From an uncultured Candidatus Saccharibacteria bacterium (GTDB taxonomy: Bacteria; Patescibacteriota; Minisyncoccia; UBA6257), in assembly GCA_964479005.1 (NCBI GenBank), contig CAYZJA010000001.1, positions 32,001 through 96,000 on the forward strand: a stretch of 64,000 bases of DNA, read 5' to 3'. Below, in pieces: positions 34,977 through 52,362 of the stretch. The notes beneath the pieces are model-generated. The model ran no database searches. It was not told the DNA's origin and worked only from the letters and a program-made list of their open reading frames with translations. Positions within the stretch are counted from its first letter, which is position 1. Every line of letters begins with the position of its first letter. The position numbers and the translations under genes are program-made.

Positions 34977-35003
34977 TTTATAATGCTATTAAAGAAATTC
35001 AAC

Positions 35004-35030
35004 CAAAAGGTTAAAAATTAATTAAAAAAT
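35004..35030 (+). promoter_or_regulatory. Island 5' cassette motif (variant copy) directly before the ATG
   Basis: CAAAAGGTTAAAAATTAATTAAAAAAT-ATG. Confidence 0.5.
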
Positions 35031-35906
35031 ATGAAAAGAATATTTTATATTATAGGTGGGATAATTGTTTTAATTATCATTATTATCACAAGTAGTGGAG
35101 GTAAAAGGAGTGGAATAAAATCAGAAGAACTCACCGCTGGAGTCATTGTTGGGGATAAATTATTGGTTGAAGAAGAAAAAACTTATTTAGTGACAAAAGT
35201 AATAGATGGAGATACTATTACTATAGAAGGTGGTGAGGTAATTCGTTATATTGGGATTGATACTCCTGAAACTGTTCATCCTTCAAAACCAGTGGAATGT
35301 TTTGGAAAAGAAGCTTCTAGTAAAAATAAAGAGTTAGTTGATGGGAAGAGGGTAAAATTAGGAAAAGATGTTTCGGAAACAGATAGATATGGACGTCTTC
35401 TTCGTTATGTTTGGGTTGGCGATATTTTTGTAAATGATTATCTTGTAAGGCAAGGTTATGCTTATGCTTATACATATCCTCCTGATGTAAAATATTCTGA
35501 ACAATTTGTTCAAGCCCAACAAGAGGCAAGAGAAAATAATAGGGGGCTATGGGAAGGTTGTCCAGTTACATCTACAGAATATCCTACTACAACCATAATA
35601 ACTCAAGTTGTACCACCAACTACGACAACTACAATAGTAGCCCCCACTACTACAACAACCACAATAGTAGCTCCTACCACTACAACAATCACAACATTGC
35701 CACCTACGACTACTACTGTACCTCCCACTACTACCATTACTTATTTTACCGAGGAAATAATTTGTTCTTATAATGCTTATAATTGTTCTAATTTTTCTAC
35801 TCATGCCGAAGCTCAAGAAGCCTATGAATTCTGCGGTGGAGTTAGTAATGATATCCATCGACTTGATAGAGATAAAGATGGACTAGCATGCGAAAGTTTA
35901 CCTTAG
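35031..35906 (+). CDS. Secreted/membrane-anchored thermonuclease (SNase-like) with a Thr/Pro-rich linker and a C-terminal Excalibur Ca-binding domain
   Basis: N-terminal TM helix; SNase motifs GDTITIEG...IGIDTPE...RYGRLLRYVW; TTTT(I/V)(A)P repeats; DRDKDGLACE Excalibur motif. Confidence 0.85.
   Translation: MKRIFYIIGGIIVLIIIIITSSGGKRSGIKSEELTAGVIVGDKLLVEEEKTYLVTKVIDGDTITIEGGEVIRYIGIDTPETVHPSKPVECFGKEASSKNKELVDGKRVKLGKDVSETDRYGRLLRYVWVGDIFVNDYLVRQGYAYAYTYPPDVKYSEQFVQAQQEARENNRGLWEGCPVTSTEYPTTTIITQVVPPTTTTTIVAPTTTTTTIVAPTTTTITTLPPTTTTVPPTTTITYFTEEIICSYNAYNCSNFSTHAEAQEAYEFCGGVSNDIHRLDRDKDGLACESLP
35590..35740 (+). repeat. Tandem ~30-nt coding repeats (ACTACTACAACAACCACAATAGTAGC...) encoding the Thr/Pro-rich linker
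   Basis: At least two near-identical units plus degenerate copies, visible by eye. Confidence 0.6.
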
Positions 35907-35937
35907 AAGAATTTATGACTTATTCAAATTTAATTTT

Positions 35938-35971
35938 GTAAAACGTCAAAAATTAATTAAAAAATAAAATT
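35938..35971 (+). promoter_or_regulatory. Island 5' cassette motif copy
   Basis: GTAAAACGTCAAAAATTAATTAAAAAATAAAATT-ATG. Confidence 0.55.
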
Positions 35972-37807
35972 ATGGTGAAGGAAAAAGGGAAAAAGAAAGA
36001 ATATCCTAGTGAAACAGCTGTTCAGCTGATTCCTCATTTAAGCGAAGGCACATATACCACTTTTGCAAAAGCAGCAAAGGAATTGGTTATTAATGCATTC
36101 GATGCTAACGCATCGGAGATTCGTATAGATTTTGATAAAGATTTTTCAAGCCTTATATTACTTGATGACGGAGATGGGATGTCATCGAAGAAGTTCAAAA
36201 CAGAATTTCTCCGTATAGCGGGGTCAAAAAGACGGCTAGAATCTCAAAAGAGAAAATACAATAGACCGATGGTGGGAAGATTTGGAATAGGCTTTCTTTC
36301 TGTAGCGAGATTGTGTAAAACCGTTAAAGTTTATTCAAAAGAAAAAGGGAATAATTTTGGCATTGCTAGAGAAATACCCTTGGAGCATCTTTTTGATAAA
36401 GGTAATCAATTAAAGAATTTAAAGGAACAATATTATTTTTATTCTTTACCCGACTTTAGAGATGATAAAAAGAAAAGCTATACGAAAATAATCCTCAGCG
36501 GGCTCCGTCAGGATATTCAGGAAGACCTAAAGTCCGCAAAGAAATTCAAGAAAGTTTGGGGTAGGGTGGATGATCTTTGCGGAATTGAGAAATTTAAGTG
36601 GGAATTAGGCATACTCTCACCTGTGAAATATTTTAATAATTTTCCAGTGCACAGACTATCTAATAGTCAAATTGAACGAGCTAAACAAGAATTAGATAAA
36701 TTTAGTTTTAGAGTTTTTGTTAATAAAAATGAAATATTGAAACCAATTTGTTTAGGATACCATTATTTTACTAACGCTAAATGGGAATATCTTACTAAGG
36801 CTGTACCGAGAAATCATTGTGGTATTATCCCAATCATGTCTCCTCCGGGAGAAAAATTTAAATTTTATGGTTATATTTATAATCAAACTAAACAAATTCA
36901 GCCCTCTTCGCTTAGAGGTATTCTTTTGTGCATTAATCACATTGGCATAAAAGGCTACAGTAAGTCATTATTTGAATTTCCTAAAAACATAGGACCTATT
37001 CTTTCAGCAATTAGTGGAGAGATTTTTCTTGACCCTGCTTTCGAAGAAATACTGACTATTGATAAAGATGATTTTAAGGAAGACCATCCATTATTTAAGA
37101 ATTTAGCAGGTTATATTCATAATGCCATAGATGAAGTTGCTGCTAACTCTCGAAAAAGATCCAGTAGGATTAAAGCAAAAAAGAAGGAAGTTGCAAGAAT
37201 AAAAGACTTAGATCTTTCTTCGGAGGAAGTAAAACAAGCACAGAAGATTTTAGGCAAAAAAGAATTCAAACAAGAATATTTCCCGAATCCCGATATTTCA
37301 ATAAGAACAAATATCAAAAATTTAAAGACTCGAGTAAGAAATTTGGTCGGGAAGACCATAGACCAAGACGAGGCAAGCTATTTAATAGAATCTCTCGAAT
37401 GTTTTGAGGCGGATTGTTTCAGGGGGTCTATATTAATGGCATGGAATACAGGGATGTTTCGTATTCACCGAAAGATAGCAAAAAATATAGGGTTTGCTAA
37501 ATTTCAGAGCGAAATTATAAAGATGAGAACTTCATTACAAACACCACAAGCTCAAAAAAGCAGGCTGAAAAATTGTAATTGCTTAGATGATTTGAAGTAC
37601 TATAATGAAGAAATGATTTGTAGACTTTTGAAAAAAATTCAGTTAATGGACAGCATCACGGCGAAATTATTTTATGAAGTACTAATCAAGATAAGGCATT
37701 ATTGCGCACATCCTACTGGGCACAGAGCAACTGATGGAGAGGCTATTTTTATGATTCAGTCTGTCTTAGATAGAATTTTGAATAGTAATAGGTTTATTAT
37801 TAAATGA
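35972..37807 (+). CDS. GHKL (Hsp90/MORC-like) ATPase with a C-terminal HEPN-like domain
   Basis: Bergerat-fold motifs ELVINAFDA (N box), LLDDGDGM (G1), GRFGIGF (G2). C-terminal Rx4H motif IKIRHYCAHPTGH. Confidence 0.7.
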   Translation: MVKEKGKKKEYPSETAVQLIPHLSEGTYTTFAKAAKELVINAFDANASEIRIDFDKDFSSLILLDDGDGMSSKKFKTEFLRIAGSKRRLESQKRKYNRPMVGRFGIGFLSVARLCKTVKVYSKEKGNNFGIAREIPLEHLFDKGNQLKNLKEQYYFYSLPDFRDDKKKSYTKIILSGLRQDIQEDLKSAKKFKKVWGRVDDLCGIEKFKWELGILSPVKYFNNFPVHRLSNSQIERAKQELDKFSFRVFVNKNEILKPICLGYHYFTNAKWEYLTKAVPRNHCGIIPIMSPPGEKFKFYGYIYNQTKQIQPSSLRGILLCINHIGIKGYSKSLFEFPKNIGPILSAISGEIFLDPAFEEILTIDKDDFKEDHPLFKNLAGYIHNAIDEVAANSRKRSSRIKAKKKEVARIKDLDLSSEEVKQAQKILGKKEFKQEYFPNPDISIRTNIKNLKTRVRNLVGKTIDQDEASYLIESLECFEADCFRGSILMAWNTGMFRIHRKIAKNIGFAKFQSEIIKMRTSLQTPQAQKSRLKNCNCLDDLKYYNEEMICRLLKKIQLMDSITAKLFYEVLIKIRHYCAHPTGHRATDGEAIFMIQSVLDRILNSNRFIIK

Positions 37808-38940
37808 CAAAAATCCTATTAGTAGAACCAAATTTTCCTATACCACCTAAAAGTAAAAATCATAGGGATTTTTTACCTATTGGATTATTAAAACTAGCAA
37901 ACTATCACAGAGGAAAGGGGGATAAAATTAAACTTGTTAGGGGAAATTATTATTTCCCCGATTTTTATCCCAGTCAGGTAAAAATAACTTCGCTTTTTAC
38001 ATATTGGTCTAATTATGTGTGGGAAAGTGTAAAATTCTACAAAGAAAACTATCCGAAAGCCAAAGTGATAGTTGGCGGCATTTATGCATCGTTAATGCCG
38101 GAGCATTGCAAAAAATCAGGTTGCGACGAAGTATTCATTGGAGTGGATAAGAACGCTGAAAAGTATGAACCAGCCTATGATTTGGTAAATGTAGATTACC
38201 AGATAATGCATACAAGCAGAGGTTGTATTAGAAGATGCAAGTTTTGCGGCACATGGAAGATAGAGCCGGAATTCAAATATAAAAAAAGCATAAAAGACGA
38301 GATTTGTAGCAATCGAATAATCTTTTATGATAATAATCTCTTAGCCAATCCTTATATAAAAAATATTTTTGAAGAGCTAAAGAATTCTAAATATAATGGC
38401 AGGGTTGTATATTCTGAAAGTCAATGTGGCATTGATGGTAGATTGCTTACGCCAAAACTAGCGAAATTGCTAAAACAAGCGAGATTTCTGAATCCGAGAA
38501 TTGCATGGGATCATAGTTATGGTCAGCGAAAAATGATAAAAAAACAAATTGATATGTTGGTAGATGTCGGTTATCCCGTTAAAGACATCTATATTTTCAT
38601 GATCTATAATTTTGAACAAGATTATTATGAAATGCTGAATAAACTTAGGCAATGCAAAAAATGGGGTGTCCAGATTGCGGATTGTAGATATCGACCCTTG
38701 GATCAAACTTTTGATAATTATAATCCTCGAATAAGCCAGACAAATAAAGATTATTATATTCATTCTAAATGGAGTGATAGGCAAATTAAACTTTTCAGAA
38801 AGAAAGTCAGACAACAGAATATTATGATAAGACATGGGTTTGATTTTTACAGTAAAGAGTTGGAAAGATTGGGGACGAAGAAAAGAAATAAAAAAAATAG
38901 TGTCAAATCTATCCTAAATAACCAAAAGGTCAAAAATTAA
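37804..38940 (+). CDS. B12-binding-domain radical SAM enzyme, translationally coupled to the upstream GHKL-HEPN gene
   Basis: ATGA overlap with the upstream stop; N-terminal B12-binding-like segment; radical SAM cluster motif SRGCIRRCKFCG (CxxxCxxC). Confidence 0.75.
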   Translation: MTKILLVEPNFPIPPKSKNHRDFLPIGLLKLANYHRGKGDKIKLVRGNYYFPDFYPSQVKITSLFTYWSNYVWESVKFYKENYPKAKVIVGGIYASLMPEHCKKSGCDEVFIGVDKNAEKYEPAYDLVNVDYQIMHTSRGCIRRCKFCGTWKIEPEFKYKKSIKDEICSNRIIFYDNNLLANPYIKNIFEELKNSKYNGRVVYSESQCGIDGRLLTPKLAKLLKQARFLNPRIAWDHSYGQRKMIKKQIDMLVDVGYPVKDIYIFMIYNFEQDYYEMLNKLRQCKKWGVQIADCRYRPLDQTFDNYNPRISQTNKDYYIHSKWSDRQIKLFRKKVRQQNIMIRHGFDFYSKELERLGTKKRNKKNSVKSILNNQKVKN

Positions 38941-38955
38941 TTGAAAAATAAAAAT
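38923..38955 (+). promoter_or_regulatory. Island 5' cassette motif copy; its 5' half encodes the C-terminus (QKVKN*) of the radical SAM gene
   Basis: CAAAAGGTCAAAAATTAATTGAAAAATAAAAAT, followed after 24 nt by the ATG at 38980. Confidence 0.55.
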
Positions 38956-38979
38956 TAGGAATAGAAGGCGGAAATTATT

Positions 38980-40296
38980 ATGGGAAAAGAAGAAACAAAA
39001 AAAGAAGAAATGAAACCATGTCCTTTATGTGGGACAATGCTTTTATATGATAAATGGTTACAAGTAGTAGGTGTATATGAAGAACAGCAGAAATATAAAA
39101 AACAATTGGAATTAGAATTAAGCAAAGCCAAAAAGCAAGAATTAAAGCTAAAAGAAGAATATAAAAAAATTCGTCAGAAAGAAAAAGAAATACGGACTCA
39201 GTACGCTCTTAAAAAATCAAAACTTAGCCAGCAGCATAAAACGCAATTAGAAAAACTCCAAAAAAGATTTGAAAAAGAAAAACGAAAAGTGCTGAATCAG
39301 GCTAAAAAGGAAGGCATTAAAATCGGTTTTGAGAAAGAACAAGCAAGATTAAAAAAGCTCAAACAACAACAAAAGAAGATCAAAAAGCAATTAGAAAGAC
39401 AAAAACAAATAGAATTAAAACGAATTTATCGTAAAGGAATTGGAATGGGGGAAGAAAAACAGAAAGCAAGAACAGAAAAAGTAAGTCTGATGGCTGAGAG
39501 ACGTCGTAAAGAAAGGGACAAAGCAATGGAGAAAGTAAAACAACTTGAGGAAATGATGAAACAAGGTACAACACCACAGATAGAAGGGTTTAATTTTGAG
39601 AAAGAGTTTGCTAAGCAACTCAAGCAAAAATTTCCAGAGGATGACATAAAGCCAACTGGACATAAGGGGGATATTATCCATACAGTTCAAGCAAAAGAGG
39701 AGAAAATTGGAAAAATTATCTATGAGTGCAAAAAAACTAAAGAATTCGAAAACAAATTTATTGAACAAATTCGACGAGATAAAACTAGAGTAATTGCAGA
39801 TTATGGAGTAATTGTTACTTGGACCACAAAAGAGAGTAAGCAGAATTTTTGGTTGGCGGGAGATATAATTATAGTTCATCCCTATGGGGCCTTAGATATA
39901 GCAACACTTCTCCGCGAAACACTGATACAAATGTATACACTTAAGTTATCAAGGGCAGAGTTTGAGACCAAGGGTAAAGCTATTCTTAAATTTATGCAAT
40001 CTGAGGAATTTAGAACAAGAATTCAAAATTCTATTGTTAAAAGCAGAGAAGCTTATGAATCTTTAAAGAAGGAGATTACAACGCATTTTAATACTTGGGA
40101 TAAGAGAGCCAAGATATACGAAAGTATCTATAAAAACACAAATATTATTCAGCGTACCGTTCAATACGTATTACTTTATAGTAAGATTCCTGAAAATTTA
40201 CCCGAAACAAAAGGACTTCCGCCACTCCAAATATTACCCAAAAAAGAATCAAAAGAGCAAGAAAAAGAGCAAAATGAACAAAACAGACAAAAATAA
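38980..40296 (+). CDS. Coiled-coil protein with a C-terminal PD-(D/E)xK nuclease-like domain (DUF2130-like architecture)
   Basis: N-terminal CPLCG Zn-ribbon-like motif; ~200 aa of K/E/Q coiled coil; GDIIHTV...KIIYECKK gives a D...ExK motif. Confidence 0.55.
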   Translation: MGKEETKKEEMKPCPLCGTMLLYDKWLQVVGVYEEQQKYKKQLELELSKAKKQELKLKEEYKKIRQKEKEIRTQYALKKSKLSQQHKTQLEKLQKRFEKEKRKVLNQAKKEGIKIGFEKEQARLKKLKQQQKKIKKQLERQKQIELKRIYRKGIGMGEEKQKARTEKVSLMAERRRKERDKAMEKVKQLEEMMKQGTTPQIEGFNFEKEFAKQLKQKFPEDDIKPTGHKGDIIHTVQAKEEKIGKIIYECKKTKEFENKFIEQIRRDKTRVIADYGVIVTWTTKESKQNFWLAGDIIIVHPYGALDIATLLRETLIQMYTLKLSRAEFETKGKAILKFMQSEEFRTRIQNSIVKSREAYESLKKEITTHFNTWDKRAKIYESIYKNTNIIQRTVQYVLLYSKIPENLPETKGLPPLQILPKKESKEQEKEQNEQNRQK

Positions 40297-41323: not shown

Positions 41324-41367
41324 CAAAAGGTCAAAAATGAATTGAGAAATAATTTAATTATAAAAAT
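41324..41367 (+). promoter_or_regulatory. Island 5' cassette motif copy (variant)
   Basis: GCAAAAGGTCAAAAATGAATTGAGAAATAATTTAATTATAAAAAT-ATG. Confidence 0.5.
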
Positions 41368-41958
41368 ATGCCAAGAAGAAAAACATTGCTTGATGAAATA
41401 TTTTATATATTAGAGAGAATTAGTGTTGTATATGTAATAGCATTATTTTTTATTTGGTTTTCTGACAAAGAATTATTTTTTAAATTATTAGGATGGGGAC
41501 TCGCAATATTAGGTATTTTAATCGCAATTGTAATATTTACGAAAAGATCGAAGATTCATAAACGAAGTCAATTTGATACTGATAGGGAGTTACAGAAATG
41601 GCTAGGTGATTTGAAGCATTGGGAATTTGAAAATTACATTGGAGATTTATTTAATAAATTAGGATATAAAACTCGGGTTATTGGTGGATCATATGATGAA
41701 GGAATTGACGTTATTGCTGAGAAAAACGGAATAAAACATTATATCCAATGCAAAAAATATAGTAATAGTGTTGGGGTGAAGGATGTGAGAGAATTTTATG
41801 GAGCTTTATCTGATAAATTATCTAATGATAAAGCCTTTTTTATCACCACTAATTTTTTTACTGAAGGAGCTGAAAGATTTGTCGAAGACAAACCAATTGA
41901 ATTAGTTGATGGTAATCAACTCGTTAAATACATTCGCCTTGCCGAAAAATCTAACTAA
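41368..41958 (+). CDS. Membrane-anchored Mrr-cat restriction endonuclease-like protein
   Basis: Two N-terminal TM helices; Mrr_cat core FENYIGDLF...GGSYDEGIDVIAE...IQCKKY (D/ExK). Confidence 0.7.
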   Translation: MPRRKTLLDEIFYILERISVVYVIALFFIWFSDKELFFKLLGWGLAILGILIAIVIFTKRSKIHKRSQFDTDRELQKWLGDLKHWEFENYIGDLFNKLGYKTRVIGGSYDEGIDVIAEKNGIKHYIQCKKYSNSVGVKDVREFYGALSDKLSNDKAFFITTNFFTEGAERFVEDKPIELVDGNQLVKYIRLAEKSN

Positions 41959-41995
41959 AACGTCAAAAATTAATTGAAAAATGAAAAATAAAATT
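41955..41995 (+). promoter_or_regulatory. Island 5' cassette motif copy
   Basis: CTAAAACGTCAAAAATTAATTGAAAAATGAAAAATAAAATT; the ATG is 20 nt downstream. Confidence 0.5.
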
Positions 41996-42661: not shown

Positions 42662-42692
42662 CAAAAGGTCAAAAATTAATTGAAAATAAAAA
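42662..42692 (+). promoter_or_regulatory. Island 5' cassette motif copy
   Basis: CAAAAGGTCAAAAATTAATTGAAAATAAAAA-ATG. Confidence 0.55.
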
Positions 42693-43019
42693 ATGATTAA
42701 AAAACATAATAAGTTAATTCGGGATAGAATTTTGGAAATTATTGAGGCAAATAAAGAGAAGTCTTATTTTCGGATTCTAAATAAAAAAGAATATATTAAA
42801 GAGATAAAGAAGAAAATATTAGAAGAAGCTAAAGAATTAATTGAAGCCAAAAGCAAAAAGGAAGTTATTAATGAAATTGTTGATATTCAAGAATTAATTG
42901 ATGTTTTGATATCTGAAAGTGGTTTAACAAAATTACAGATTCAAAAACAGCAAGAAGTAAAAAATAAAAAGCGAGGCGGATTTAAAAAGCGACTATTTTT
43001 AATAAAGACAAAAAATTAA
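42693..43019 (+). CDS. Small MazG-like/PRA-PH-like nucleotide pyrophosphohydrolase (putative)
   Basis: N-terminal KLIRDRILEII resembles MazG-like NTP-PPases. All-alpha, 108 aa. Confidence 0.45.
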   Translation: MIKKHNKLIRDRILEIIEANKEKSYFRILNKKEYIKEIKKKILEEAKELIEAKSKKEVINEIVDIQELIDVLISESGLTKLQIQKQQEVKNKKRGGFKKRLFLIKTKN

Positions 43020-43092
43020 TCCTTCGACACGGTTCAGGACAAGTTGAGAAAAATAACTCAAAATTGAGAGGATTAAGAATTTTAGAAATTTG

Positions 43093-43875
43093 ATGAAAAT
43101 TAAGTTTATTAAAATCAAAGCAAAGCAAATTTTTACTAAAACTGGCATTCCAGGGGCAAAATGGGTCTTAAATCAGTATGTAGGATGTGAACATGCTTGT
43201 CCATATTGTTATGCTAAGTTTATGGGCAGATGGCGGCCGAAAAACTATGGAAAATGGGGAAACTGGGTTGAAGTAAAAGAAAATGCTTCTGAATTAGTAA
43301 AAGGCAAGTATGTAGATTCTTGGGTATATATGAGTTCTGTTTCTGATCCATACCAACCCATTGAAAAAAAATTAAAAATAACTCGTAAAGTTTTAGAAAA
43401 TTTAGATAAAAGAATTAAATTAGCTATTCTTACTAAGTCAGATTTAGTGTTACGAGATATAGATTTATTTAAGAAGTTTAAGAATATTGAGGTTGGGTTA
43501 ACTATAAATAGTTTTGATAGTTCTCTGAAGAAGGTTTTTGAGCCGTTTTCATCAAAAAACGAGGATAGAATAAAGGCTTTGAAAGTCCTTAAAGAGAATG
43601 GAATAAGAACTTATACTTTTATTAGCCCGATAATTCCTGGACTAATAAATTTAAAAGATGTAATTAGAAAAACTAAAAATTTGACTGATTATTATTGGTT
43701 CGAAATGATTAATATGAAACTAGCTGGTAGAGAATTTATCAAGATTTTGAGAAAAGAATCTCCCGAAAGTTTAGAAGTCGTTACTAATAAAAGGAAGTTT
43801 GAAAAGTTTGTAAAAGAATGTAAAAATATTATTAATTCAGAAGATATAAAGGTTAGAGGGATAGAGATTCACTAA
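43093..43875 (+). CDS. Radical SAM protein of the SplB/DNA-photolyase-like (COG1533) type
   Basis: VGCEHACPYCYA CxxxCxxC cluster close to the N-terminus, typical of the family. Confidence 0.7.
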   Translation: MKIKFIKIKAKQIFTKTGIPGAKWVLNQYVGCEHACPYCYAKFMGRWRPKNYGKWGNWVEVKENASELVKGKYVDSWVYMSSVSDPYQPIEKKLKITRKVLENLDKRIKLAILTKSDLVLRDIDLFKKFKNIEVGLTINSFDSSLKKVFEPFSSKNEDRIKALKVLKENGIRTYTFISPIIPGLINLKDVIRKTKNLTDYYWFEMINMKLAGREFIKILRKESPESLEVVTNKRKFEKFVKECKNIINSEDIKVRGIEIH

Positions 43876-43905
43876 AGGGTCAAAAATTAATTGAAAAATA
43901 AAAAT
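43874..43905 (+). promoter_or_regulatory. Island 5' cassette motif copy
   Basis: AAAGGGTCAAAAATTAATTGAAAAATAAAAAT-ATG. Confidence 0.55.
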
Positions 43906-44358
43906 ATGGCAATAAAATGGAACAAGATCGATTTTGATTTAGTTAAACGTCTTAGAGGATTGGCTGAATTATCTTGTAATAATGGAGATTATATAGGGGC
44001 CTTTGTTCTTCAGATGCTATTTTTGGAGGGTACGTTAGTGTTCATAGTTAAGAATTTATTAAATCAAAAAAGGGTAGACAAGGAATTATCTAATAAATTT
44101 TCTCAAGGATACCCAACATTCGCTTCTCTTATGGATTATTTTTTTCTGTTGACAACGAATCACGATATATTTAATAAGTTAAGAGATGTAAATAAACGTA
44201 GAAATAAAATAATTCATAATATTTTTGAATTTGAAACTTTTGATGCTCTCCAGCAAGAATCGCGAGAACTGTATTTAGAATCGCGGAAACTAGAAGTTGA
44301 TTTAATAGGTCAATACCTTAGTAAGTTTTTGAAAAATAAAAAATTAATTGAAAAATAA
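43906..44358 (+). CDS. Hypothetical protein with a possible HEPN-like Rx4H motif
   Basis: KRRNKIIHN near the C-terminal third. Start set at the ATG that follows the motif rather than the upstream TTG. Confidence 0.35.
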   Translation: MAIKWNKIDFDLVKRLRGLAELSCNNGDYIGAFVLQMLFLEGTLVFIVKNLLNQKRVDKELSNKFSQGYPTFASLMDYFFLLTTNHDIFNKLRDVNKRRNKIIHNIFEFETFDALQQESRELYLESRKLEVDLIGQYLSKFLKNKKLIEK

Positions 44359-44362
44359 GATT

Positions 44363-44967: not shown

Positions 44968-44999
44968 ACAAAAGGTCAAAAATTAATTAATAAAAAAAT
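44968..44999 (+). promoter_or_regulatory. Island 5' cassette motif copy
   Basis: ACAAAAGGTCAAAAATTAATTAATAAAAAAAT-ATG. Confidence 0.55.
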
Positions 45000-46259
45000 A
45001 TGTATAAAAAAATTATATTAATTGGAATAATATTTGTTTTGTTTGCAGGTATAGCTGTTGCTGCAGTATTGTTCCTTTTTCCTTATGAGCCAAATGAGCC
45101 ACCTCAAGCAGATAATACTGGTTCAACAGAACAAGGGATACAAGATGTAGTTAATGCAAATAATCAATTTGCTTTTGATCTTTATTCTGAATTAGATAAA
45201 TCTGAAGATGGAAATATGTTTTATTCTCCATACAGTATCTCTGCAGCTTTGGCAATGACTTATGAAGGCGCAGAAGGGCAGACAGCAGATGAAATAAAAT
45301 CAGTTTTTCATTTCCCAGAAGATAATATTTTAAGACCTAATTTTGCTGCTATTTATAATGATATTAATAAAGAAAATGGAGATTATGAGTTGAAAACCGG
45401 AAATGCTTTATGGGTTCAAAAAGATTATTCTTTTTTACAAGAATATATAAGCAGAGTTGAAAACTATTATGGCGGAAAAGCGGCAATTTTAGATTTTAAG
45501 AAAGAAACCGAAAAATCAAGGCAAACTATTAATAGTTTTATAGAAGAACAGACTAATGACAAAATTAAGGATTTAATTCCTAAAGGTTATCTTGATGAGA
45601 TGACAAGACTTGTTTTAACCAACGCAATCTATTTTAAAGGCATTTGGGAATGGGAATTTGATAAAGATGATACTCGTGACGGAATTTTTAGGATAACTCC
45701 TGATAATACTGTAGAGACTTCTATGATGCACATGAATCCTGAAGAGGCAAAATTTAATTATGCCGAAACAGAAGATTTGCAGATATTGGAATTACCATAC
45801 AAAGGTGACAAAATTTCAATGCTGATACTTTTGCCAACTGAAAATCTTGATGTAATAGAATCTTCTCTGACAACAGAAAAATTAAATGGATACAAATCTC
45901 AGATGAAAGAAACAAAACTAGATTCAATATCGCTTCCTAAATTTGAATTTGACACAAAATATTTTATGAAAGATACTTTGATTTCTTTAGGGATGCCAAC
46001 AGCTTTTTCAGAAAATGCTGATTTTTCTGGAATGACTGGCAAAAAGGATTTATTCATTAGTCATGTTATTCATCAAGCGTATGTTGGTGTTGACGAAGAG
46101 GGAACAGAAGCAGCTGCTGCAACTGCTGTGGTTATGACGATGTCAGCAGTTCTGCAAAGAAAAGTATTCAATGCGGATCATCCATTTATATTTCTAATAC
46201 AAGAGAAAGACACTGGAAATATTTTATTCTTCGGCAGAGTAGTTGATCCAACAAAATAA
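45000..46259 (+). CDS. Serpin (serine protease inhibitor) with an N-terminal signal/anchor
   Basis: FSPYSISAALAMTYEGAEG, NAIYFKGIWEWEFD, hinge EEGTEAAAATAVVM, C-terminal HPFIFLI. Confidence 0.9.
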   Translation: MYKKIILIGIIFVLFAGIAVAAVLFLFPYEPNEPPQADNTGSTEQGIQDVVNANNQFAFDLYSELDKSEDGNMFYSPYSISAALAMTYEGAEGQTADEIKSVFHFPEDNILRPNFAAIYNDINKENGDYELKTGNALWVQKDYSFLQEYISRVENYYGGKAAILDFKKETEKSRQTINSFIEEQTNDKIKDLIPKGYLDEMTRLVLTNAIYFKGIWEWEFDKDDTRDGIFRITPDNTVETSMMHMNPEEAKFNYAETEDLQILELPYKGDKISMLILLPTENLDVIESSLTTEKLNGYKSQMKETKLDSISLPKFEFDTKYFMKDTLISLGMPTAFSENADFSGMTGKKDLFISHVIHQAYVGVDEEGTEAAAATAVVMTMSAVLQRKVFNADHPFIFLIQEKDTGNILFFGRVVDPTK

Positions 46260-46340
46260 AGGAGAACTGTTCTCCTTTATTTTGTTAAGCAGAAATTAAT
46301 CCTTCGGCAAACTCAGGACAAATTAAAAAATAGAAAATAA

Positions 46341-46856: not shown

Positions 46857-46880
46857 AATCCTATCAAAGTCGAATTTCGT

Positions 46881-46913
46881 AAAAGGTCAAAAAAATAATT
46901 AAAAATAAGATTT
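46881..46913 (+). promoter_or_regulatory. Island 5' cassette motif copy
   Basis: AAAAGGTCAAAAAAATAATTAAAAATAAGATTT-ATG. Confidence 0.55.
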
Positions 46914-47516: not shown

Positions 47517-47550
47517 AAAATTATAAAATTAGAATAAAAATTTAAACTTC

Positions 47551-47580
47551 AAAAGATCAAAAATTAATTAAGAAAAATTT
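47551..47580 (+). promoter_or_regulatory. Island 5' cassette motif copy
   Basis: AAAAGATCAAAAATTAATTAAGAAAAATTT-ATG. Confidence 0.55.
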
Positions 47581-48441
47581 ATGCTCTCGTATGCTAATGG
47601 AAAATTTATTTCAACAGACGAACTATCTCTACCTGTGCAAAAAGATTTGATAGGCACTTTTCGTGGTTTTCGCATTTTTACTGCTTGTCGCACTTTACCA
47701 AATGGAAAGATTTTTCGTTTTGAAGATCATATTAACCGTTTGTTTAGTTCTGCTAAAGTCATTCATATGGAATTGCCGCATAACAAAAATGAATTAAAAG
47801 AAATTGTTCGAGAGGTAATAACTAAAAATAACAAAGACAACGGGGAATTGTTGCTTGAGATAATGTATAGTGGCGGTAAAGCAGCTTCAAACGGGATAGC
47901 GCCAGTAGGGGAGACTATTTTGTATATTTTGGTTTTGTCTTTAAATCTGCCGCCTGAAGAGTGGTATCAGCAAGGTATAAAGTTGGCAAGTTTTCCTTAT
48001 CAGCGTCAGTGGCCAGAAATTAAGTTCTTAAACTATGTTGGTGCTGTGATTGCCCATCAAACGGTAGTTAAAGAATACGGAGCAGATGAAGTTCTTTTTC
48101 TTTCGCCAGACGAAAAAAACATTGTGTTGGAAGGCACTACTTTTAATTTTTTTGTTGTTAAAAATGGTGTTGTGTTTACTCATGCTTTAGATGGTAAGAT
48201 TTTGCCTGGTATAACGCGCAAGGTGGTTTTAGAATTAGCGTACAAAGAAGGTGTTGAGGTTAAAGAGATAAATTTTTCTCTTAATGAATTAGCTGAAATG
48301 GATGAGGCATTTATTACATCTTCAACACGCAATATAGTGCCTGTGATTAGGGTTGATAACATAATAATAGGCAATGGTAAACCAGGTGAACTAACCCTTA
48401 AACTGGCAAGGATTTTTAAAAAATATCAAATCAACTATTAA
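47581..48441 (+). CDS. Class IV (fold-type IV) aminotransferase (branched-chain/D-amino acid type)
   Basis: FEDHINRLFSSAK, EVLFL...GTTFNFFVVKNG...LPGITR. Confidence 0.8.
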   Translation: MLSYANGKFISTDELSLPVQKDLIGTFRGFRIFTACRTLPNGKIFRFEDHINRLFSSAKVIHMELPHNKNELKEIVREVITKNNKDNGELLLEIMYSGGKAASNGIAPVGETILYILVLSLNLPPEEWYQQGIKLASFPYQRQWPEIKFLNYVGAVIAHQTVVKEYGADEVLFLSPDEKNIVLEGTTFNFFVVKNGVVFTHALDGKILPGITRKVVLELAYKEGVEVKEINFSLNELAEMDEAFITSSTRNIVPVIRVDNIIIGNGKPGELTLKLARIFKKYQINY

Positions 48442-48462
48442 CTAATTGAAGTTTAATTTCGT

Positions 48463-48492
48463 AAAAGGTCAAAAATTAATTGGGAATAAAAA
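48463..48492 (+). promoter_or_regulatory. Island 5' cassette motif copy
   Basis: TAAAAGGTCAAAAATTAATTGGGAATAAAAA-ATG. Confidence 0.55.
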
Positions 48493-49485
48493 ATGAGTTT
48501 GTTTATAAGAAAAAATTTAGTAAAGACATTAATCTTTTTGTTTTTTCTGATTTTGGCAGGAGGCATTTTTCTTATAGAAGAAGAATTGTATACAGGGACA
48601 ACCCTTGAAGAAGATTTTGTTTTAGAAAAAGGGTTGAATGAGGCTCCAACAGAGAGCCCAGAATTAAAAGAGCCTTCTTTTATAGTTTTATTTTCAGCTA
48701 CTGAGCTTCAGCAAGGAAATACATTAATTATTATGGCAGAGAATATTCCTGAGGGGGAAAAAATTACGGGAAAATTTAACGGTAAATCATTTGATTTTTT
48801 TCCAGTTAAACCAGAAGGAAAATGGAGAGCTCTTTTGGGAATTGATGCAAAAAAAGCTCCTGGAGAATATTCTTTATCAGTTTTTCTTTCTGATGAATCA
48901 GAAATCAAAGAAACAATAACAGTAAAAAAGAGCAACTTTCCTGTAACCAAAATTGTAATAACGCCAGAACTGGAAGAAAAGGGTTTTACTGCATCAAATA
49001 TAGCAGGAAATATTGCTACTAAAGACGGGGTTATTATTTATGGGGTTTTAGAAAAATATAGTTCTATGGCATATTTTAACCAGAGTTTTATTTATCCGTT
49101 TGAGGAAATAATAAACGTGGGCGCTTTTGGAAACATTAGAAAAGACGGAAAGATTACAATTCAGCATTTGGGAGTGGATTTAGATGCTGTTGAGGGGACA
49201 TCAGTTTATGCGATTAATAATGGTAGAGTAGTTTTTGTTGAAGAATTAACAGTTTTTGGTAATACAATTATTATAGATCATGGCTTAGGAATTTATTCTT
49301 TATATTTACATCTTTCTGAATTTAAAGTTTTGGAAGGAGAAATACTGGAAAGGGGAGAATTAATTGGACTTTCTGGAAACACTGGTTGGTCAGTAGGGCC
49401 TCATTTACATCTTTCCATAAAAGTAAATGGAGCAAGCGTTGATCCTTTGGAGTTTATTAGAACGGTTGATGAATTTTTGAAATAG
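48493..49485 (+). CDS. M23 (LytM-type) metallopeptidase with an N-terminal TM anchor
   Basis: HLGVDLDA...IDHGLGIYSLYLHLS...GNTGWSVGPHLHLSI. Confidence 0.85.
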   Translation: MSLFIRKNLVKTLIFLFFLILAGGIFLIEEELYTGTTLEEDFVLEKGLNEAPTESPELKEPSFIVLFSATELQQGNTLIIMAENIPEGEKITGKFNGKSFDFFPVKPEGKWRALLGIDAKKAPGEYSLSVFLSDESEIKETITVKKSNFPVTKIVITPELEEKGFTASNIAGNIATKDGVIIYGVLEKYSSMAYFNQSFIYPFEEIINVGAFGNIRKDGKITIQHLGVDLDAVEGTSVYAINNGRVVFVEELTVFGNTIIIDHGLGIYSLYLHLSEFKVLEGEILERGELIGLSGNTGWSVGPHLHLSIKVNGASVDPLEFIRTVDEFLK

Positions 49486-49491
49486 CGAAAC

Positions 49492-49526
49492 AAAAGGTCG
49501 AAAATTAATCGAAAATGAAATCTGTT
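49492..49526 (+). promoter_or_regulatory. Island 5' cassette motif copy, displaced ~50 nt from the ATG by an inserted GC-rich segment
   Basis: AAAAGGTCGAAAATTAATCGAAAATGAAATCTG then GGAGGTTGGGCCTCGC before the ATG at 49575. Confidence 0.45.
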
Positions 49527-49574
49527 TGGAGGTTGGGCCTCGCATTATTCTTTTTAAAATGATAATCTTAATAT

Positions 49575-50186
49575 ATGAGATTAGTTTTAAAAAATAAATA
49601 CTTCTTACTAAGGCACGGAAAAACTATTCATCAAGCAGAGAAGGAGGATATTGTTTATTACCATCCTGATGATAATCCTGCTTGTGCTTTATTAGAGAAA
49701 GGAATAAAGGAAGCTCAGCTAGCTGGGGAAGCACTAAAAGAAAAAAACATCGATTTAATATTTTCATCAGATATTTTAAGAACAAAACAGACAGTTAAAA
49801 TTGTTGCTGAATTAATTAACTATGATCTAGAGAAAGTAGTTTATGATGTAAGGTTAAGAGATGTTAATTGGGGAATATTTGGAGGAAAGAGTGAAGAAGA
49901 AGCTTGGTCATACTATAACAATGATATGATGAACAAGTTTGAATCAAGTGTTCCTCAAGGAGAGAGCTGGAATCAGTGCAGAGAAAGGATGGTTGAAGTT
50001 TTAAAGGAAATTGAAAATAATTTTGCAAATAAGAATATTTTAATAGTTTCTCATGGAGATCCTTTATGGCTTTTAGAAGGATATATTAAAGGAAAAAGTA
50101 ATGAAGAATTGGTTTTTGGAAAGAATAGAAAAAAAGATATTAAAACCGGGGAAATAAGAGAAATTAATAATCAAACCAAAAAGTAA
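49575..50186 (+). CDS. Histidine phosphatase superfamily (phosphoglycerate mutase-like) protein
   Basis: LLRHGKT catalytic RHG motif; downstream His in SHGD. Confidence 0.75.
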   Translation: MRLVLKNKYFLLRHGKTIHQAEKEDIVYYHPDDNPACALLEKGIKEAQLAGEALKEKNIDLIFSSDILRTKQTVKIVAELINYDLEKVVYDVRLRDVNWGIFGGKSEEEAWSYYNNDMMNKFESSVPQGESWNQCRERMVEVLKEIENNFANKNILIVSHGDPLWLLEGYIKGKSNEELVFGKNRKKDIKTGEIREINNQTKK

Positions 50187-50208
50187 GAATTAATTGGGAA
50201 ATAAAAAT

Positions 50209-50544
50209 ATGTCGAAAATGACTATAAAAGAAGCTCAAGAAATTGTTGATAAATGGATTAACACAACCGGGGTGCGATATTTTTCTGAACTTACAAATTT
50301 AGCTCAATTGGTTGAGGAAGTAGGTGAGGTTGCTCGAGTTATGTCCAGAACTTATGGTGATCAGAGTTTTAAGAAATCAGAAGAGGGTAAAAAATTAGCC
50401 GATGAATTGGCGGATGTACTTTTTGTACTTATATGTCTTGCCAACCAAACGGGTGTTGATTTGACAGAAGCACTTCAGGGGAATATTGAGAAAAAGACAA
50501 AAAGAGACAAAGATCGGCATCGAAATAATCCAAAATTAAAATAA
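50209..50544 (+). CDS. MazG-family nucleotide pyrophosphohydrolase
   Basis: EEVGEVARV...ELADVLFVLICLA EExxE motifs. A partial cassette motif is upstream; the ATG was chosen over the TTG. Confidence 0.8.
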   Translation: MSKMTIKEAQEIVDKWINTTGVRYFSELTNLAQLVEEVGEVARVMSRTYGDQSFKKSEEGKKLADELADVLFVLICLANQTGVDLTEALQGNIEKKTKRDKDRHRNNPKLK

Positions 50545-50573
50545 AAAACGTCAAAAATTAATTGAAAATTAAA
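50545..50573 (+). promoter_or_regulatory. Island 5' cassette motif copy with no gene behind it (followed by a 10-codon mini-ORF and a hairpin)
   Basis: AAAACGTCAAAAATTAATTGAAAATTAAA-ATGCCC... Confidence 0.5.
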
Positions 50574-50576
50574 ATG

Positions 50577-50600
50577 CCCAAGGATAAGCTTATCCTTGGG
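50577..50600. terminator. Perfect 12-bp palindrome (CCCAAGGATAAG/CTTATCCTTGGG); likely terminator for the convergent minus-strand gene
   Basis: Perfect inverted repeat. A T-rich run follows on the minus strand. Confidence 0.5.
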
Positions 50601-50618
50601 CGGTGATAGTGGGATTTA

Positions 50619-50855
50619 TTATTTCTTTTCATGATAAACTACCATAAAGATTGCAAATATTGCTACGAGCAAATAAATAGTAAAATCCGAGCTCATTATA
50701 CCAATATTTTTGACCGTTAATCTTTCTATTGAAGAAAACATAATGATAATACAACAGACAAGAGATGTTACAATAGAAATTATAAGCAGAATTGTCAAAG
50801 ACGCTAACACACGAGAGAAAATCTTCTCAATTTTAAAAGGAAAAAATTCTTTCAT
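50619..50855 (-). CDS. Small two-TM membrane protein
   Basis: Good SD (GGAGGAAGGGATCA-ATG) on the minus strand; two hydrophobic helices. Confidence 0.5.
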   Translation of the reverse strand: MKEFFPFKIEKIFSRVLASLTILLIISIVTSLVCCIIIMFSSIERLTVKNIGIMSSDFTIYLLVAIFAIFMVVYHEKK

Positions 50856-50997
50856 TGATCCCTTCCTCCTTCTTATTTATTAAATCTTTTATCAAAGATT
50901 TTAATATACTATTTGTACAAAATAATACCATAAACTATTGGTTAGAAAACTTAAAAGATTATGAAAGTAGGGACAAGGAGAGCTAGAGAACTGGCTA

Positions 50998-51201
50998 TTA
51001 GCCTCCTTGTCGCCCGTGAGTTATTAAAAGAATTTTTTGTTTTTCGATTTCTATTTCAATCGTATTTAGTCCACCGTGGGTACTATCTGAGTAACCCTTG
51101 CCAGATCCGCAAACTGGACACGCTCCATCTTTCCAAAGTTTATGATGGGTTTTGTATAAGCAATGGCTGCATCTCCAGATCCTTTTAGGTACATTTTGCA
51201 T
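50998..51201 (-). CDS. Small zinc-ribbon protein
   Basis: CSHC...CPVC motif; SD AAGGAG 6 nt before the ATG. Preferred over the overlapping + strand ORF 50961-51188. Confidence 0.5.
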   Translation of the reverse strand: MQNVPKRIWRCSHCLYKTHHKLWKDGACPVCGSGKGYSDSTHGGLNTIEIEIEKQKILLITHGRQGG

Positions 51202-51300
51202 TTGCTTTCACTCCTTCTTTTTTCTCTTTTTATTAGATTTTAAGATGTCAATATGCTATTTGTATAAGATGATACCATTAATTATAATAAAGGTCAAGTT

Positions 51301-51332
51301 CGTAAAAGGTAAAAATTAATGGAATATAAAAT
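51301..51332 (+). promoter_or_regulatory. Island 5' cassette motif copy (variant), ~90 nt upstream of the ATP-cone gene
   Basis: CGTAAAAGGTAAAAATTAATGGAATATAAAAT. An extended -10 TGGTATAAT follows at ~51387. Confidence 0.45.
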
Positions 51333-51422
51333 AATAGTTAGACTTTCTAATGTATTAGATTTTTGAAAAATCTGGTATAATTGAAAAGGTCGTTAACATT
51401 AATAAATAATTCTTAATAAATT

Positions 51423-51701
51423 ATGGCAGAAGTTATTAAAAAAAATGGAATGAAAGAACCATTTGATCCTGAAAAAATTAAAAAATCAATTGCTGGTGCT
51501 GCTCAACAGGCTGATGTCCCAGAAGAGAGAAAAGACGAAGTAGTATATGAAGTGGCAGGAACAGTAATCCCTATGTTTGAAGGTAAAGAGGAAATTGATA
51601 CAAGTGATATTAAGAAAGCTATTCTTAGTGAGTTGGATAGGGTTGAACCGGCTGTAGCTAGTGCTTGGAGAAAATATGAGGAAGGTAAAAGGAAAGTTTA
51701 A
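51423..51701 (+). CDS. Stand-alone ATP-cone domain protein
   Basis: VIKKNGMKEPFDPEKIKKSIAGAA matches the ATP-cone consensus (VIKRDG..E.F...KI). Confidence 0.55.
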   Translation: MAEVIKKNGMKEPFDPEKIKKSIAGAAQQADVPEERKDEVVYEVAGTVIPMFEGKEEIDTSDIKKAILSELDRVEPAVASAWRKYEEGKRKV

Positions 51702-51898
51702 TAAAGAAGGATGAAAGGCGTCCCAATGGGGCGCTTTTCAATTTAGGTAAAAAAGAAATTAAAGTAATCTTTATTATCTATTACTTTTTCTACTTTTTAA
51801 TTCCTTTATTAGCTAAGATATTAATTATATTATATACTTATATATAATTTTAATAAACTAATCTTTATAAAAAGCTAAAAATTAAGGGAGAATTTATT

Positions 51899-52105
51899 AT
51901 GGAATGTCAAAAAGAAGAAAATTTAAAAAGTTGTCCTTGTACTTATCCTGATTGTCCAAGAAAAGGCATTTGTTGTGAGTGTATAAAATATCATTTGGCG
52001 CGCAATGAATTGCCAGCTTGTTGTTTTTCAAAGGAAGCAGAAAAGACTTTTGATCGTTCCTTTGAAATGTTTATTAAAAATCAAAAAGGCAAATTGAAAG
52101 AATAG
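51899..52105 (+). CDS. Small cysteine-rich protein (CPC...CP...CCEC...CC)
   Basis: 9 Cys in 68 aa arranged as a metal-binding-like pattern. Confidence 0.5.
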   Translation: MECQKEENLKSCPCTYPDCPRKGICCECIKYHLARNELPACCFSKEAEKTFDRSFEMFIKNQKGKLKE

Positions 52106-52140
52106 AGAAGATAATAAGCATTTTATGTTAAAATATATTA

Positions 52141-52174
52141 AAAGGTCGGAAATTAATTAAAGAAATTAAATACT
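52141..52174 (+). promoter_or_regulatory. Island 5' cassette motif copy (last clear copy in the island)
   Basis: AAAGGTCGGAAATTAATTAAAGAAATTAAATACT-ATG. Confidence 0.5.
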
Positions 52175-52339
52175 ATGAAAAAAGAATTTCCTTATCAAAT
52201 TCATATGGCCCTTGGACTCATTTGGCTTTTTGTTGGGGTAGTTTTTCATTCAGGAATTGAGTTAGCTATTTGGGTCGCTGGAGGATTAGTGATGGTAACA
52301 ATTGGTTTTTTAAACAAAAAAGGCAAAGAAAATCATTAG
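52175..52339 (+). CDS. Small (54 aa) two-TM membrane protein; not in the ORF track because it is under 60 aa
   Basis: MKKEFPYQIHMALGLIWLFVGVVFHSGIELAIWVAGGLVMVTIGF... preceded by the cassette motif. Confidence 0.35.
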   Translation: MKKEFPYQIHMALGLIWLFVGVVFHSGIELAIWVAGGLVMVTIGFLNKKGKENH

Positions 52340-52362
52340 TAGGTAAAAATAGTAAAAATAAT

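Follow-up and report, generated by a model that had tools for sequence, protein, structure and literature searches.

A short repeated motif at the joints of a putative gene-cassette array in a Candidate Phyla Radiation bacterium

The window analysed here is a 64,000-nt stretch (positions 32,001 to 96,000, forward strand) of contig CAYZJA010000001.1, assembly GCA_964479005.1, from an uncultured bacterium of the Candidate Phyla Radiation (CPR) deposited as Candidatus Saccharibacteria. Between 35 and 52 kb it contains an array of genes (a stretch of 17-25 kb, degenerate outliers lying at 31.8 and 56.8 kb), in which most genes are preceded by a short A-rich motif; the island sits between the rpoB/rpoC/clpB region and the S12-S7-EF-G-EF-Tu-S10 operon, and from 35 to 50.5 kb every gene of the array reads along the + strand. 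Comparison with related genomes supports a reading of the island as an array in which cassettes would be gained and lost at the motif.

The island and its repeated motif

The genes behind the motif have been described, in a preliminary description of this DNA, as functionally unrelated, and Pfam broadly agrees: the domains found are SNase, GHKL ATPase, radical SAM/B12, DUF2130, Mrr, half an MFS transporter, PRA-PH/MazG, radical SAM, ClpP, serpin, alpha/beta hydrolase, class IV aminotransferase, M23, His phosphatase, MazG and ATP-cone, with the left part of the window rich in nucleases. The radical SAM/B12 gene (37804-38940) overlaps the GHKL ATPase gene to give a two-gene cassette; its stop is the TAA in the core of the following motif copy, and the copy in front of the ClpP paralog is encoded by the final codons of the gene before it. 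The stop codons within these two copies, at 38938-38940 and 44356-44358, bear out the earlier claim that some copies lie partly inside the last codons of the upstream gene. The 318-aa gene 40354-41310, after the DUF2130 gene, has no motif, and a terminator-like hairpin (46258-46278) follows the serpin gene. The MFS cassette encodes the N-terminal half of a transporter only (190 aa; MFS_1 profile positions 1-173 of 347) and is probably a decaying cassette. Between neighbouring copies lie 0.4-3 kb of sequence that codes for proteins with Pfam domains, and a CRISPR array was rejected on this spacing.

The joint sequence CC-AAAAGGTCAAAAATTAATTGARAAATAAAAT is 26-32 nt long, A-rich and asymmetric; its conserved portion is CC-AAAAGGTCAAAAATTAATTGARAA, and conservation fades by approximately position +30. 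Each of the three frames is closed by a stop codon in the motif (TAA at 15-17, TGA at 19-21 and TAA at 26-28), and the TAA within the core terminates eight upstream open reading frames (ORFs), giving the protein tail ...NQKVKN. The distance from the end of the 21-nt core to the start codon has a mode of 9-11 nt and falls between 4 and 19 nt in 46 of 65 copies. The spacing between the upstream stop and the core varies widely, and 70 of 71 copies are oriented towards the gene that follows. A leader, ARAAATAAAA, is semi-conserved, and degenerate copies retain the ATG-proximal part AAAAATTAATTGAGAAATAAAATT more often than AAAAGGTC. Tandem cores with no ORF between them are found at three of the comparison loci (L121 at 237/297, L055 at 4668 and L197 at 3725/3770).

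The 16-nt core GGTCAAAAATTAATTG, allowing up to three mismatches, has 18 matches in the window against 4.3 expected, a number reached by none of 100 shuffles; all 18 are on the + strand, 15 of them between 35009 and 52159. The first list of copies came from a 32-mer and position weight matrix (PWM) scan; the PWM was derived from the window's own copies, and the test was therefore redone with an independent model, R1, trained on 51 copies from other genomes only. R1 recovers 12 copies in the window at E<=2e-6 and two more at E<0.01, all on the + strand and spanning 35001-52171. Its search space was 105 kb, comprising the window and two loci that reach approximately 8 and 10 kb past its ends; in the remaining ~85 kb the best value is E=0.16, with no copy at E<0.1. 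The 32-mer/PWM scan finds zero copies from 1 to 31 kb of the window. Degenerate copies at 31779, 46881, 50177, ~51385 and 56838 were found by PWM or by eye; R1 recovers neither that at 46881 nor that at 56838. A near-identical motif before the island genes, as the preliminary description held, is thus borne out by the 18 core matches and the 14 R1 copies; the further claim that it abuts the ATG within 0-3 nt holds for approximately 12 of the 18 copies and fails for those at 38924, 41325, 41957 and 49492, where 11-51 extra nt intervene. Also confirmed is the orphan copy at 50545 with its perfect palindrome. The orphan is read as the 3' core of the last cassette in a terminator-free run; on the - strand the palindrome resembles a terminator of the convergent gene 50619-50855, and on the + strand it is read as the end of that run. 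Coordinates of all features are given in Table 1.

Table 1. Motif copies and associated signals in the window, with the gene that follows each copy and its E-value under the independent model R1.
Feature	Position	Strand	Following gene or remark	R1 E-value
Degenerate copy	31779..31810	+	Precedes NYN-domain cassette 31811-32311 (Pfam)	4.6
Two overlapping TATAAT boxes	34972..34984	+	At and just past the stop of gene 33861-34976; 20-27 nt 5' of the first strong copy; candidate array promoter	
Copy	35005..35036	+	Secreted SNase 35031-35906 (Pfam)	1.1e-6
Copy	35940..35971	+	GHKL ATPase 35972-37807	3.2e-7
Consensus copy	38924..38955	+	DUF2130 38980-40296	1.1e-9
Copy	41325..41356	+	Mrr nuclease 41368-41958	1.3e-6
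Copy	41957..41988	+	5-codon mini-ORF, extra leader, MFS gene 42016-42588	8.3e-8
Copy	42663..42694	+	PRA-PH/MazG-like gene 42693-43019	5.4e-9
Insert variant	43007..43056	+	Radical SAM gene 43093-43875 (Pfam)	
Copy	43874..43905	+	150-aa gene 43906-44358	3.8e-9
Degenerate copy without GGTC	44331..44362	+	ClpP paralog 44363-44935	0.0047
Copy	44970..45001	+	Serpin 45000-46259	8.2e-7
Variant with ~21-nt insert	46287..46340	+	171-aa gene 46341-46856	
Degenerate copy AAAAGGTCAAAAAAATAATTAAAAATAAGATT	46881..46912	+	Alpha/beta hydrolase 46914-47516 (Pfam); PWM 24.6	
Copy	47551..47582	+	Class IV aminotransferase 47581-48441	1.9e-6
Copy	48463..48494	+	M23 peptidase 48493-49485	8e-8
Copy	49492..49523	+	16-codon mini-ORF, hairpin 49529-49541, His phosphatase 49575-50186	9.4e-7
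Degenerate copy	50177..50208	+	MazG 50209-50544 (Pfam)	
Orphan copy	50545..50576	+	No gene behind	2.9e-7
Perfect 24-nt palindrome	50577..50600	.	11 pairs; -13.1 kcal/mol, z=-5.15	
GGTCG-variant copy	52140..52171	+	54-aa ORF 52175-52339	0.0083
Degenerate copy AAAAGGTCGGAAATAACAATTAAAAT	56838..56866	+	Precedes MgsA/RarA gene 56867-58075 (Pfam)	

Two copies, those beginning at 43007 and 46287, carry an internal insert of ~21-25 nt that constitutes a second recurrent element, CCTTCG-N7/8-(C)TCAGGACAAGT, a mini-stem (TCCT...AGGA) whose loop varies. Its place is always between the AATTAAT and TGAGAAATAA of the motif; in the copy at 43007 it is ~25 nt long, with the form CCTTCG-N7-TCAGGACAAGT, and stands between AATTAAT and TGAGAAAAATAA. 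The insert is also seen in L150, L022 (~7860-7920), L023 (- strand, ~3018), CAZUBI (9305-9365) and at three places in L236, and could be an ORF-less mini-cassette, the scar of an exchange point or a small leader hairpin. A short leader element, AAATTTAG(T/G)YCGAAGTTGR, recurs after or before motif copies (window 41985-42010 and 42625-42650; L240 ~1890 and ~2600; L183; L022 ~7050); in appearance it is either a small hairpin (TCC...GGA) or a degenerate second copy of the 3' end of the motif.

Distribution and cassette differences among related genomes

The motif is restricted to the island. No copy lies in the 31 kb of housekeeping genes in the window or in ~18 kb of added flanks, and the flanking chromosome as a whole (~58 kb) has zero copies; several housekeeping genes in the 84 kb of window plus flanks use ordinary promoters of the TTGACA/TGnTATAAT type. 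In a relative, contig CAZUBI010000001.1 (483,822 bp), all five exact matches fall within 16 kb, in two 8-kb tiles that are known to be adjacent because one ORF spans their junction; in this second genome, too, the motif is therefore confined to an island. These results uphold the earlier statement that housekeeping genes lack the motif and dispose of the possibility that it is the organism's general start signal. A DNA uptake sequence (DUS, or uptake signal sequence, USS) was rejected on the zero copies in the ~58 kb of flanks and the clustering of exact matches within 16 kb of the 483 kb contig.

A 20-mer pattern scan of 185,579 species genomes returned mostly single chance matches, with clusters in a few related metagenome-assembled genomes (MAGs), namely CAZUBI01, CAZEMH01, CAYWLA01, DAOVIY01, CAZNBO01 and one Ca. 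Nealsonbacteria MAG; at least seven further multi-copy loci were found in a metagenome scan, and the motif is conserved in at least eight related Paceibacterota assemblies. Viral contigs (IMG/VR) gave 54 single chance matches and no clusters, and a phage origin was rejected on this basis. The highly conserved serpin was used as an anchor across relatives: two loci whose serpin is 86-88% identical (L239 and L240) have motif arrays at the orthologous locus, a third at 86% (L236) has few copies, and relatives at 75-80% (L237 and L238, 75%; L241, 80%) have no motif and display ordinary TATAAT boxes. The motif is a trait of a narrow clade with several species. The serpin itself (45000-46259) is found at 74-90% aa identity in well over 100 Paceibacterota/Patescibacteria protein clusters, one match being labelled Candidatus Woesearchaeota, in very different neighbourhoods with or without the motif.

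Three loci from CAYWLA01 (L020, L043 and L051), filed under 'uncultured Methanosarcinales archaeon', hold typical motif arrays at 28-31% GC, and CAYWLA01 is taken to be a mis-binned CPR contig; Nealsonbacteria-like CPR bacteria are reported as episymbionts of methanogens, which would fit this binning. Same-strain contigs from seven samples (JGI 3300008516, 3300008517 and 3300028837; SRR3085435, SRR3085416, SRR3095939 and SRR3095933) are 100% identical to the window or share its gene order, and no within-population indels were seen among them. An rpoB cluster at 90% identity is labelled Candidatus Paceibacterota, which places the window in a small CPR genome.

Between genomes the cassettes differ extensively, and the cassette-by-cassette accretion proposed in the preliminary description is matched among relatives, where cassettes have been gained, lost, moved and duplicated and the breakpoints fall in the motif. 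Genes common to the window and other arrays occur as single-gene blocks whose neighbourhood and order differ. Over nine arrays compared, the 23 ORFs of the window are shared with CAZUBI01 (4), L239 (7), L240 (5) and the others (0-1 each); the content of other arrays includes OLD-family and Mrr nucleases, NUDIX, HD and MazG enzymes, peptidases, methyltransferases and UDG. The window, L239 and L240 have a backbone of serpin, His phosphatase, ATP-cone, EncFtn and Fic in common, with differing intervening content and order of the shared cassettes. Of the 62 ends of homology blocks in the island, 29 are no more than 15 nt from a motif copy, against 4.7% expected.

The MazG cassette (50178-50572) is 94.5% identical to L010, from the Ca. 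Nealsonbacteria MAG, with unrelated flanks; homology begins at AATTAATTG of the left copy and ends at AATTAATTGA of the right copy. The Mrr cassette, including both flanking copies, has 79% nt identity in CAZUBI01, where the PRA-PH/MazG-like cassette is also found at 91% nt identity in a different neighbourhood. A NUDIX cassette occurs twice in CAZUBI01 at 99% identity, the repeated unit beginning immediately 3' of one core and ending with the following one (9358-9865 and 13713-14220 in CAZUBI, L023 and L055 joined). Locus L034 (DAOVIY01) matches the window at 98% over 47545-48486, with the aminotransferase gene also at 98% nt identity, and at 95.6% over 48463-50575; it holds two extra cassettes at the single joint 48463..48494, and one of these is the NYN gene, which in the window is found at 31.8 kb. 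In L034 the NYN cassette has a full motif and is placed between the aminotransferase and M23 genes. The blocks from aminotransferase to MazG are 95-98% identical between L034 and the window while right-flank genes are 83-89% identical, which hints that cassettes may have been exchanged more recently than the backbone. At the 56838 joint, L033 has an extra ~350 nt inserted. These comparisons do not bear out the claim that the conserved site sits simply at the 5' end of each cassette: the core AAAAGGTCAAAAATTAATTG moves together with the gene before it, the A-rich leader moves together with the gene after it, and the block boundaries show what appears to be a mobile unit of leader, ORF and core.

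Other repeats and modules were seen in the same arrays. A 149-aa gene is duplicated within L148 at 89% (4853-5348 and 9731-10224), and tandem paralogs of 73% identity are present in L022 (1271-2081). A conserved module after the orphan copy contains the palindrome, a 78-aa gene (-), a 75-aa Zn-ribbon protein (+) and an ATP-cone-only protein with its own TGGTATAAT promoter (window 50577-51701; L055, oriented, 6205-7389; L043 568-1400; L239 8103-8910); the cassette 5' of it is MazG in the window and NUDIX in CAZUBI01. In the conserved 3' non-coding region of the NYN cassette (~110 nt), a terminator hairpin (AAACACC...GGTGTTTTT) is accompanied by a TTGTCAAG box and by TTATCCACA, which resembles a DnaA box and reads TTATTCACA in the window; TAAAAT-N6 comes next, and then the following copy of the motif (window 32312-32439; L034 3027-3100; L055, oriented, 3932-4036; L022 ~3166-3282).

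Expression signals and recombination machinery

Terminators are found within 90 nt upstream of 2 of 70 copies, equal to the 3% background, and the run from 35.0 to 50.6 kb ends at one strong palindrome. At the start of the array, the TATAAT boxes before the first strong copy were the sole promoter candidate, and a consensus scan of 31-51 kb found no excess of promoter-like sites. Inside the motif there is no -35/-10 pair, and sigma-70-like sites are not in excess by consensus scan; an ordinary sigma-70 promoter was rejected, the TTGACC on the opposite strand having no conserved -10 partner, and sigma-54 and extracytoplasmic function (ECF) promoters were rejected by eye as their consensus spacings do not fit. 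Extended -10 boxes (TGnTAnAAT) near copies peak 1-5 nt 5' of the first base of the motif, with five in the peak (four independent) against 0.38 expected; one of this type, TGTTAAAAT, lies 5 nt 5' of the copy at 52140. Where a terminator precedes a copy, in the few such cases, a canonical -10 box lies between the two. A -10 box as a general feature upstream of every copy was rejected, the peak being confined to extended boxes. With the extended -10 just upstream, transcription would start in the leading A-tract; the motif is therefore considered to be transcribed, and not itself a promoter.

Shine-Dalgarno-like cores stand before 5 of 36 non-motif genes, and the motif contains no GGAG or GAGG, its sole AAGG being ~25 nt from the ATG. 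AATTAAT was rejected as a general ribosome-binding signal; it precedes 10 of 36 non-motif genes against 4.5 expected, and ribosomal-protein operons do not have it. Rfam returns no family match to the motif, the sole match in the window being a tRNA-Pro at 27731, and a known RNA family was rejected accordingly.

The His phosphatase cassette has a leader of its own, with a 16-codon mini-ORF that begins at the usual motif ATG position and is followed by a small hairpin and then a run of T residues (window, GAGGTTGGGCCTC; L239, CGAGGTTAAATCTCG; the stems differ among genomes). It is found at window 49514-49574, L034 4720-4781, L239 ~13060-13116 and L240 ~7030-7081, and is a possible leader-peptide attenuator. 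Outside the array, a 70-nt repeat of 93% identity occurs at 2564-2633, 5' of trmD, and at 33658-33727; the latter lies in a 400-nt gap before gene 33861, inside a long inverted repeat (GTGAGGCGAGGAGAT...ATCTCCTCACC), and the repeat has no Rfam match at the gathering threshold.

The preliminary description had noted that the window has no integrase, and Pfam agrees, finding no recombinase domain; no Phage_integrase, resolvase or transposase domain is present in any ORF of the 84 kb, and no tyrosine or serine recombinase, transposase or HUH domain was detected there or in 27 kb of two other arrays. Nine joints folded as bottom-strand single-stranded DNA gave z from -1.3 to +1.7 against shuffles, and attC-like joints were rejected as showing no structure beyond shuffles. 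The resemblance to an integron suggested earlier is not sustained, both defining tests that were run (IntI within 84 kb and attC-like hairpins at the joints) being negative, and neither is that to a shufflon or other invertible locus: all copies are direct on one strand, no recombinase is present and no inverted segments were seen between genomes. By Pfam there is no linked sigma factor or regulator in the 84 kb. An ECF sigma gene beside a P-type ATPase in L241 was rejected as a candidate; L241 has no motif, and the 146-aa neighbour at 31121, which holds the corresponding position in the window, is unrelated. ComEC is represented by two overlapping ORFs, 23425-24819 (Competence domain) and 24729-25640 (metallo-beta-lactamase domain); the gene, which bears on DNA uptake as a route of cassette import, is either split or frameshifted.

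Interpretation and comparison with known systems

The island is best explained as a hypervariable chromosomal array of co-oriented, mostly single-gene cassettes in a Paceibacterota (CPR) bacterium, each functional cassette consisting of the A-rich leader, an ORF and the core. From its position, the motif would be a transcribed intercistronic or 5' leader that provides promoterless cassettes with a standard module to stop the previous translation and start the next, in a host that rarely uses Shine-Dalgarno sites; the run from 35.0 to 50.6 kb may be one long transcript, from the TATAAT box at ~34975 to the palindrome at 50577-50600. The same motif would also be the short stretch of homology used to swap, insert, delete and duplicate cassettes, whether within related lineages or between them. 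Exchange may proceed by general recombination after DNA uptake (ComEC, 23425-25640) or through an unlinked, unrecognised site-specific enzyme; pointing to general recombination are the missing island-linked recombinase, the presence of ComEC and the precedent of repeats in T4-type phages. The chance that the motif has this dual role, as both expression joint and recombination joint, is put at about even.

Several points weigh against this dual role. The leader and translation role is drawn wholly from position, and the exact conservation of 21 nt (GGTC, AATTAATTG) exceeds what an unstructured A-rich leader would need, which implies a sequence-specific partner; the near-identity may reflect such a partner or, possibly, homogenisation since only motif-bearing cassettes would be exchangeable. 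A homology of 21-32 nt is at the lower limit for RecA-type recombination. The extended -10 argument comprises four independent cases, plain -10-like hexamers have no positional peak by motif copies, and the ATP-cone leader in L239 and L240 has its box 13 nt away. The coincidence of block ends with the motif partly reflects the occupation of gene boundaries by copies, and some cassette genes (40354, and M23 in L239 and L240) have no motif. Coverage of the genome is 84 kb of ~552 kb, and the exact 20-mer used for the 483 kb contig would let degenerate copies elsewhere escape.

A dedicated recombination site, equivalent to attC/attI in an undescribed cassette-capture system with its recombinase elsewhere in the genome, is considered unlikely. 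Strand exchange would take place at approximately AATTAAT^TGA, and proximity to the ATG would be secondary, arising from compact cassettes. Three independent events have their breakpoints at the 3' edge of the core, the ~21-25-nt insert recurs exactly at AATTAAT^TGA in several genomes, and the ORF-less tandem cores and the orphan terminal core after the last cassette would both suit such a site; so would the 15-nt imperfect palindrome TCAAnnAnTnnTTGA contained in the core, and the near-identity of the core over 21 nt across species whose cassette proteins are at 30-50% identity. However, the 84 kb and the two other arrays contain no recombinase, transposase or HUH domain, the motif has neither a hairpin nor the inverted arms typical of tyrosine-recombinase core sites, and a pure recombination site has no need of the tight ATG spacing or the semi-conserved ARAAATAAAA leader. 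Homologous and site-specific exchange are not separable because the breakpoints fall inside an identical core, which homologous recombination explains equally well. An unrecognised CPR capture and shuffling system, in which the linear 21-nt core, exchanged at that point, also acts as a three-frame stop/restart module, an unlinked enzyme would be non-IntI or unrecognisable and cassettes would circulate among the species of the clade, is doubtful to the same degree.

The preliminary description had also offered a dedicated island-wide promoter or operator, and this reading, with an alternative sigma factor or regulator binding the 21-nt core, is a little less likely still. Transcription would begin ~10 nt before each ATG to yield near-leaderless mRNAs, and cassettes would be controlled both independently and coordinately. 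Genes of the lineage with -10 boxes near the ATG do exist (aspS at 25679 and also 28475 in the window), the L238 serpin has TGATATAAT-N12-ATG, CAAAAAT(9-14)-TAATTG-A resembles a -10 hexamer (A2 and T6 present), discriminator and +1, and a TCAA-N7-TTGA dyad could bind a dimeric regulator; the hairpin after the serpin gene, followed by a motif variant and a gene, would also be in keeping with a promoter. Against these stand the lack of a housekeeping-type -35/-10 pair or of any excess in the consensus scan, the separate canonical extended -10 boxes 1-5 nt 5' of the motif in terminator-isolated or unit-starting cassettes, the orphan copy, which would fire straight into a terminator, and the absence of an island-linked sigma or regulator gene, the neighbour at 31121 being unrelated to the ECF sigma of L241. 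Acting at the RNA level only, the motif could be the target of a small RNA, an RNA-binding protein or an endoribonuclease that processes the polycistron or silences or activates cassettes in a coordinated way, with recombination at the motif incidental; this is very unlikely. Strict strand specificity (70 of 71 copies), an unstructured, single-stranded motif (z about 0), its location at the transcript 5' end where promoters are visible and its sequence-specific conservation over 21 nt all agree with an RNA target, but the window has no minus-strand copy that would provide an antisense partner, no Rfam family matches, no candidate binding protein is linked to the island, and the homology breaks at the motif are left unexplained.

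Among known systems, integron arrays such as the Vibrio superintegron with its VCR repeats are the nearest in layout: they too are compact and co-oriented, with mostly promoterless, terminator-free, unrelated single-gene cassettes, a near-identical site at each joint in which the upstream ORF may end, ORF-less units, an orphan terminal site, and content and order that differ between close relatives with breakpoints at the site. The CPR array agrees with this in sequence layout only (all + strand, terminators at 2 of 70 copies, a TATAAT box at 34972-34984), and its content likewise varies among relatives with boundaries at the repeated site; unlike an integron, it has no IntI or recombinase in 84 kb, its site is 21-32 nt, linear, A-rich and asymmetric without hairpin potential and is fixed ~10 nt from the next ATG, and its host is a CPR bacterium. 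The attC site, by comparison, is an imperfect palindrome of 57-141 nt.

The PeSL (promoter early stem-loop) repeats of T4-type phages combine a sigma-70-like early promoter with a stem-loop terminator and lie between non-essential genes in hyperplastic regions, where recombination between repeats leads to insertions, deletions and replacements (PMC2839356, PMC4122927). The CPR motif resembles them as a repeated short conserved expression signal, with shuffling that separates close relatives and would need no dedicated recombinase; repeat-bounded indels and replacements are found in both, a functional analogy only, whereas the CPR motif has no canonical promoter or stem-loop and is located on a cellular chromosome, being absent from IMG/VR contigs. 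[quoted passage not shown] Like SAS, the CPR motif is asymmetric, linked to the ATG and placed in one orientation a few nt before the starts of unrelated genes in one part of the genome, and the upstream stop codon is sometimes inside the repeat; it differs in its 26-32 nt length, in having no GGAGG, in ending ~10 nt from the ATG and in coinciding with cassette breakpoints. No prior description of the motif or of CPR cassette arrays was found in the literature searched, and the motif-joined CPR array is apparently undescribed.

CPR bacteria (Patescibacteria) are host-dependent and their genomes are tiny; the ways in which accessory genes are acquired and expressed in them are little understood. 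The island would provide a concrete, sequence-defined route: a clade-wide connector for nucleases, nucleotide-cleaning enzymes, peptidases and a serpin, which may let unrelated genes join one co-oriented array, be translated without individual Shine-Dalgarno sites and be exchanged between species. As a translation module, the motif would give a handle on initiation without Shine-Dalgarno sites in CPR bacteria and a ready-made part for genetic tools; as a true recombination site, it would represent a second, integrase-independent answer to the problem that integrons solve. Used as a probe, it should recover the flexible gene pool of the clade directly from metagenomes.

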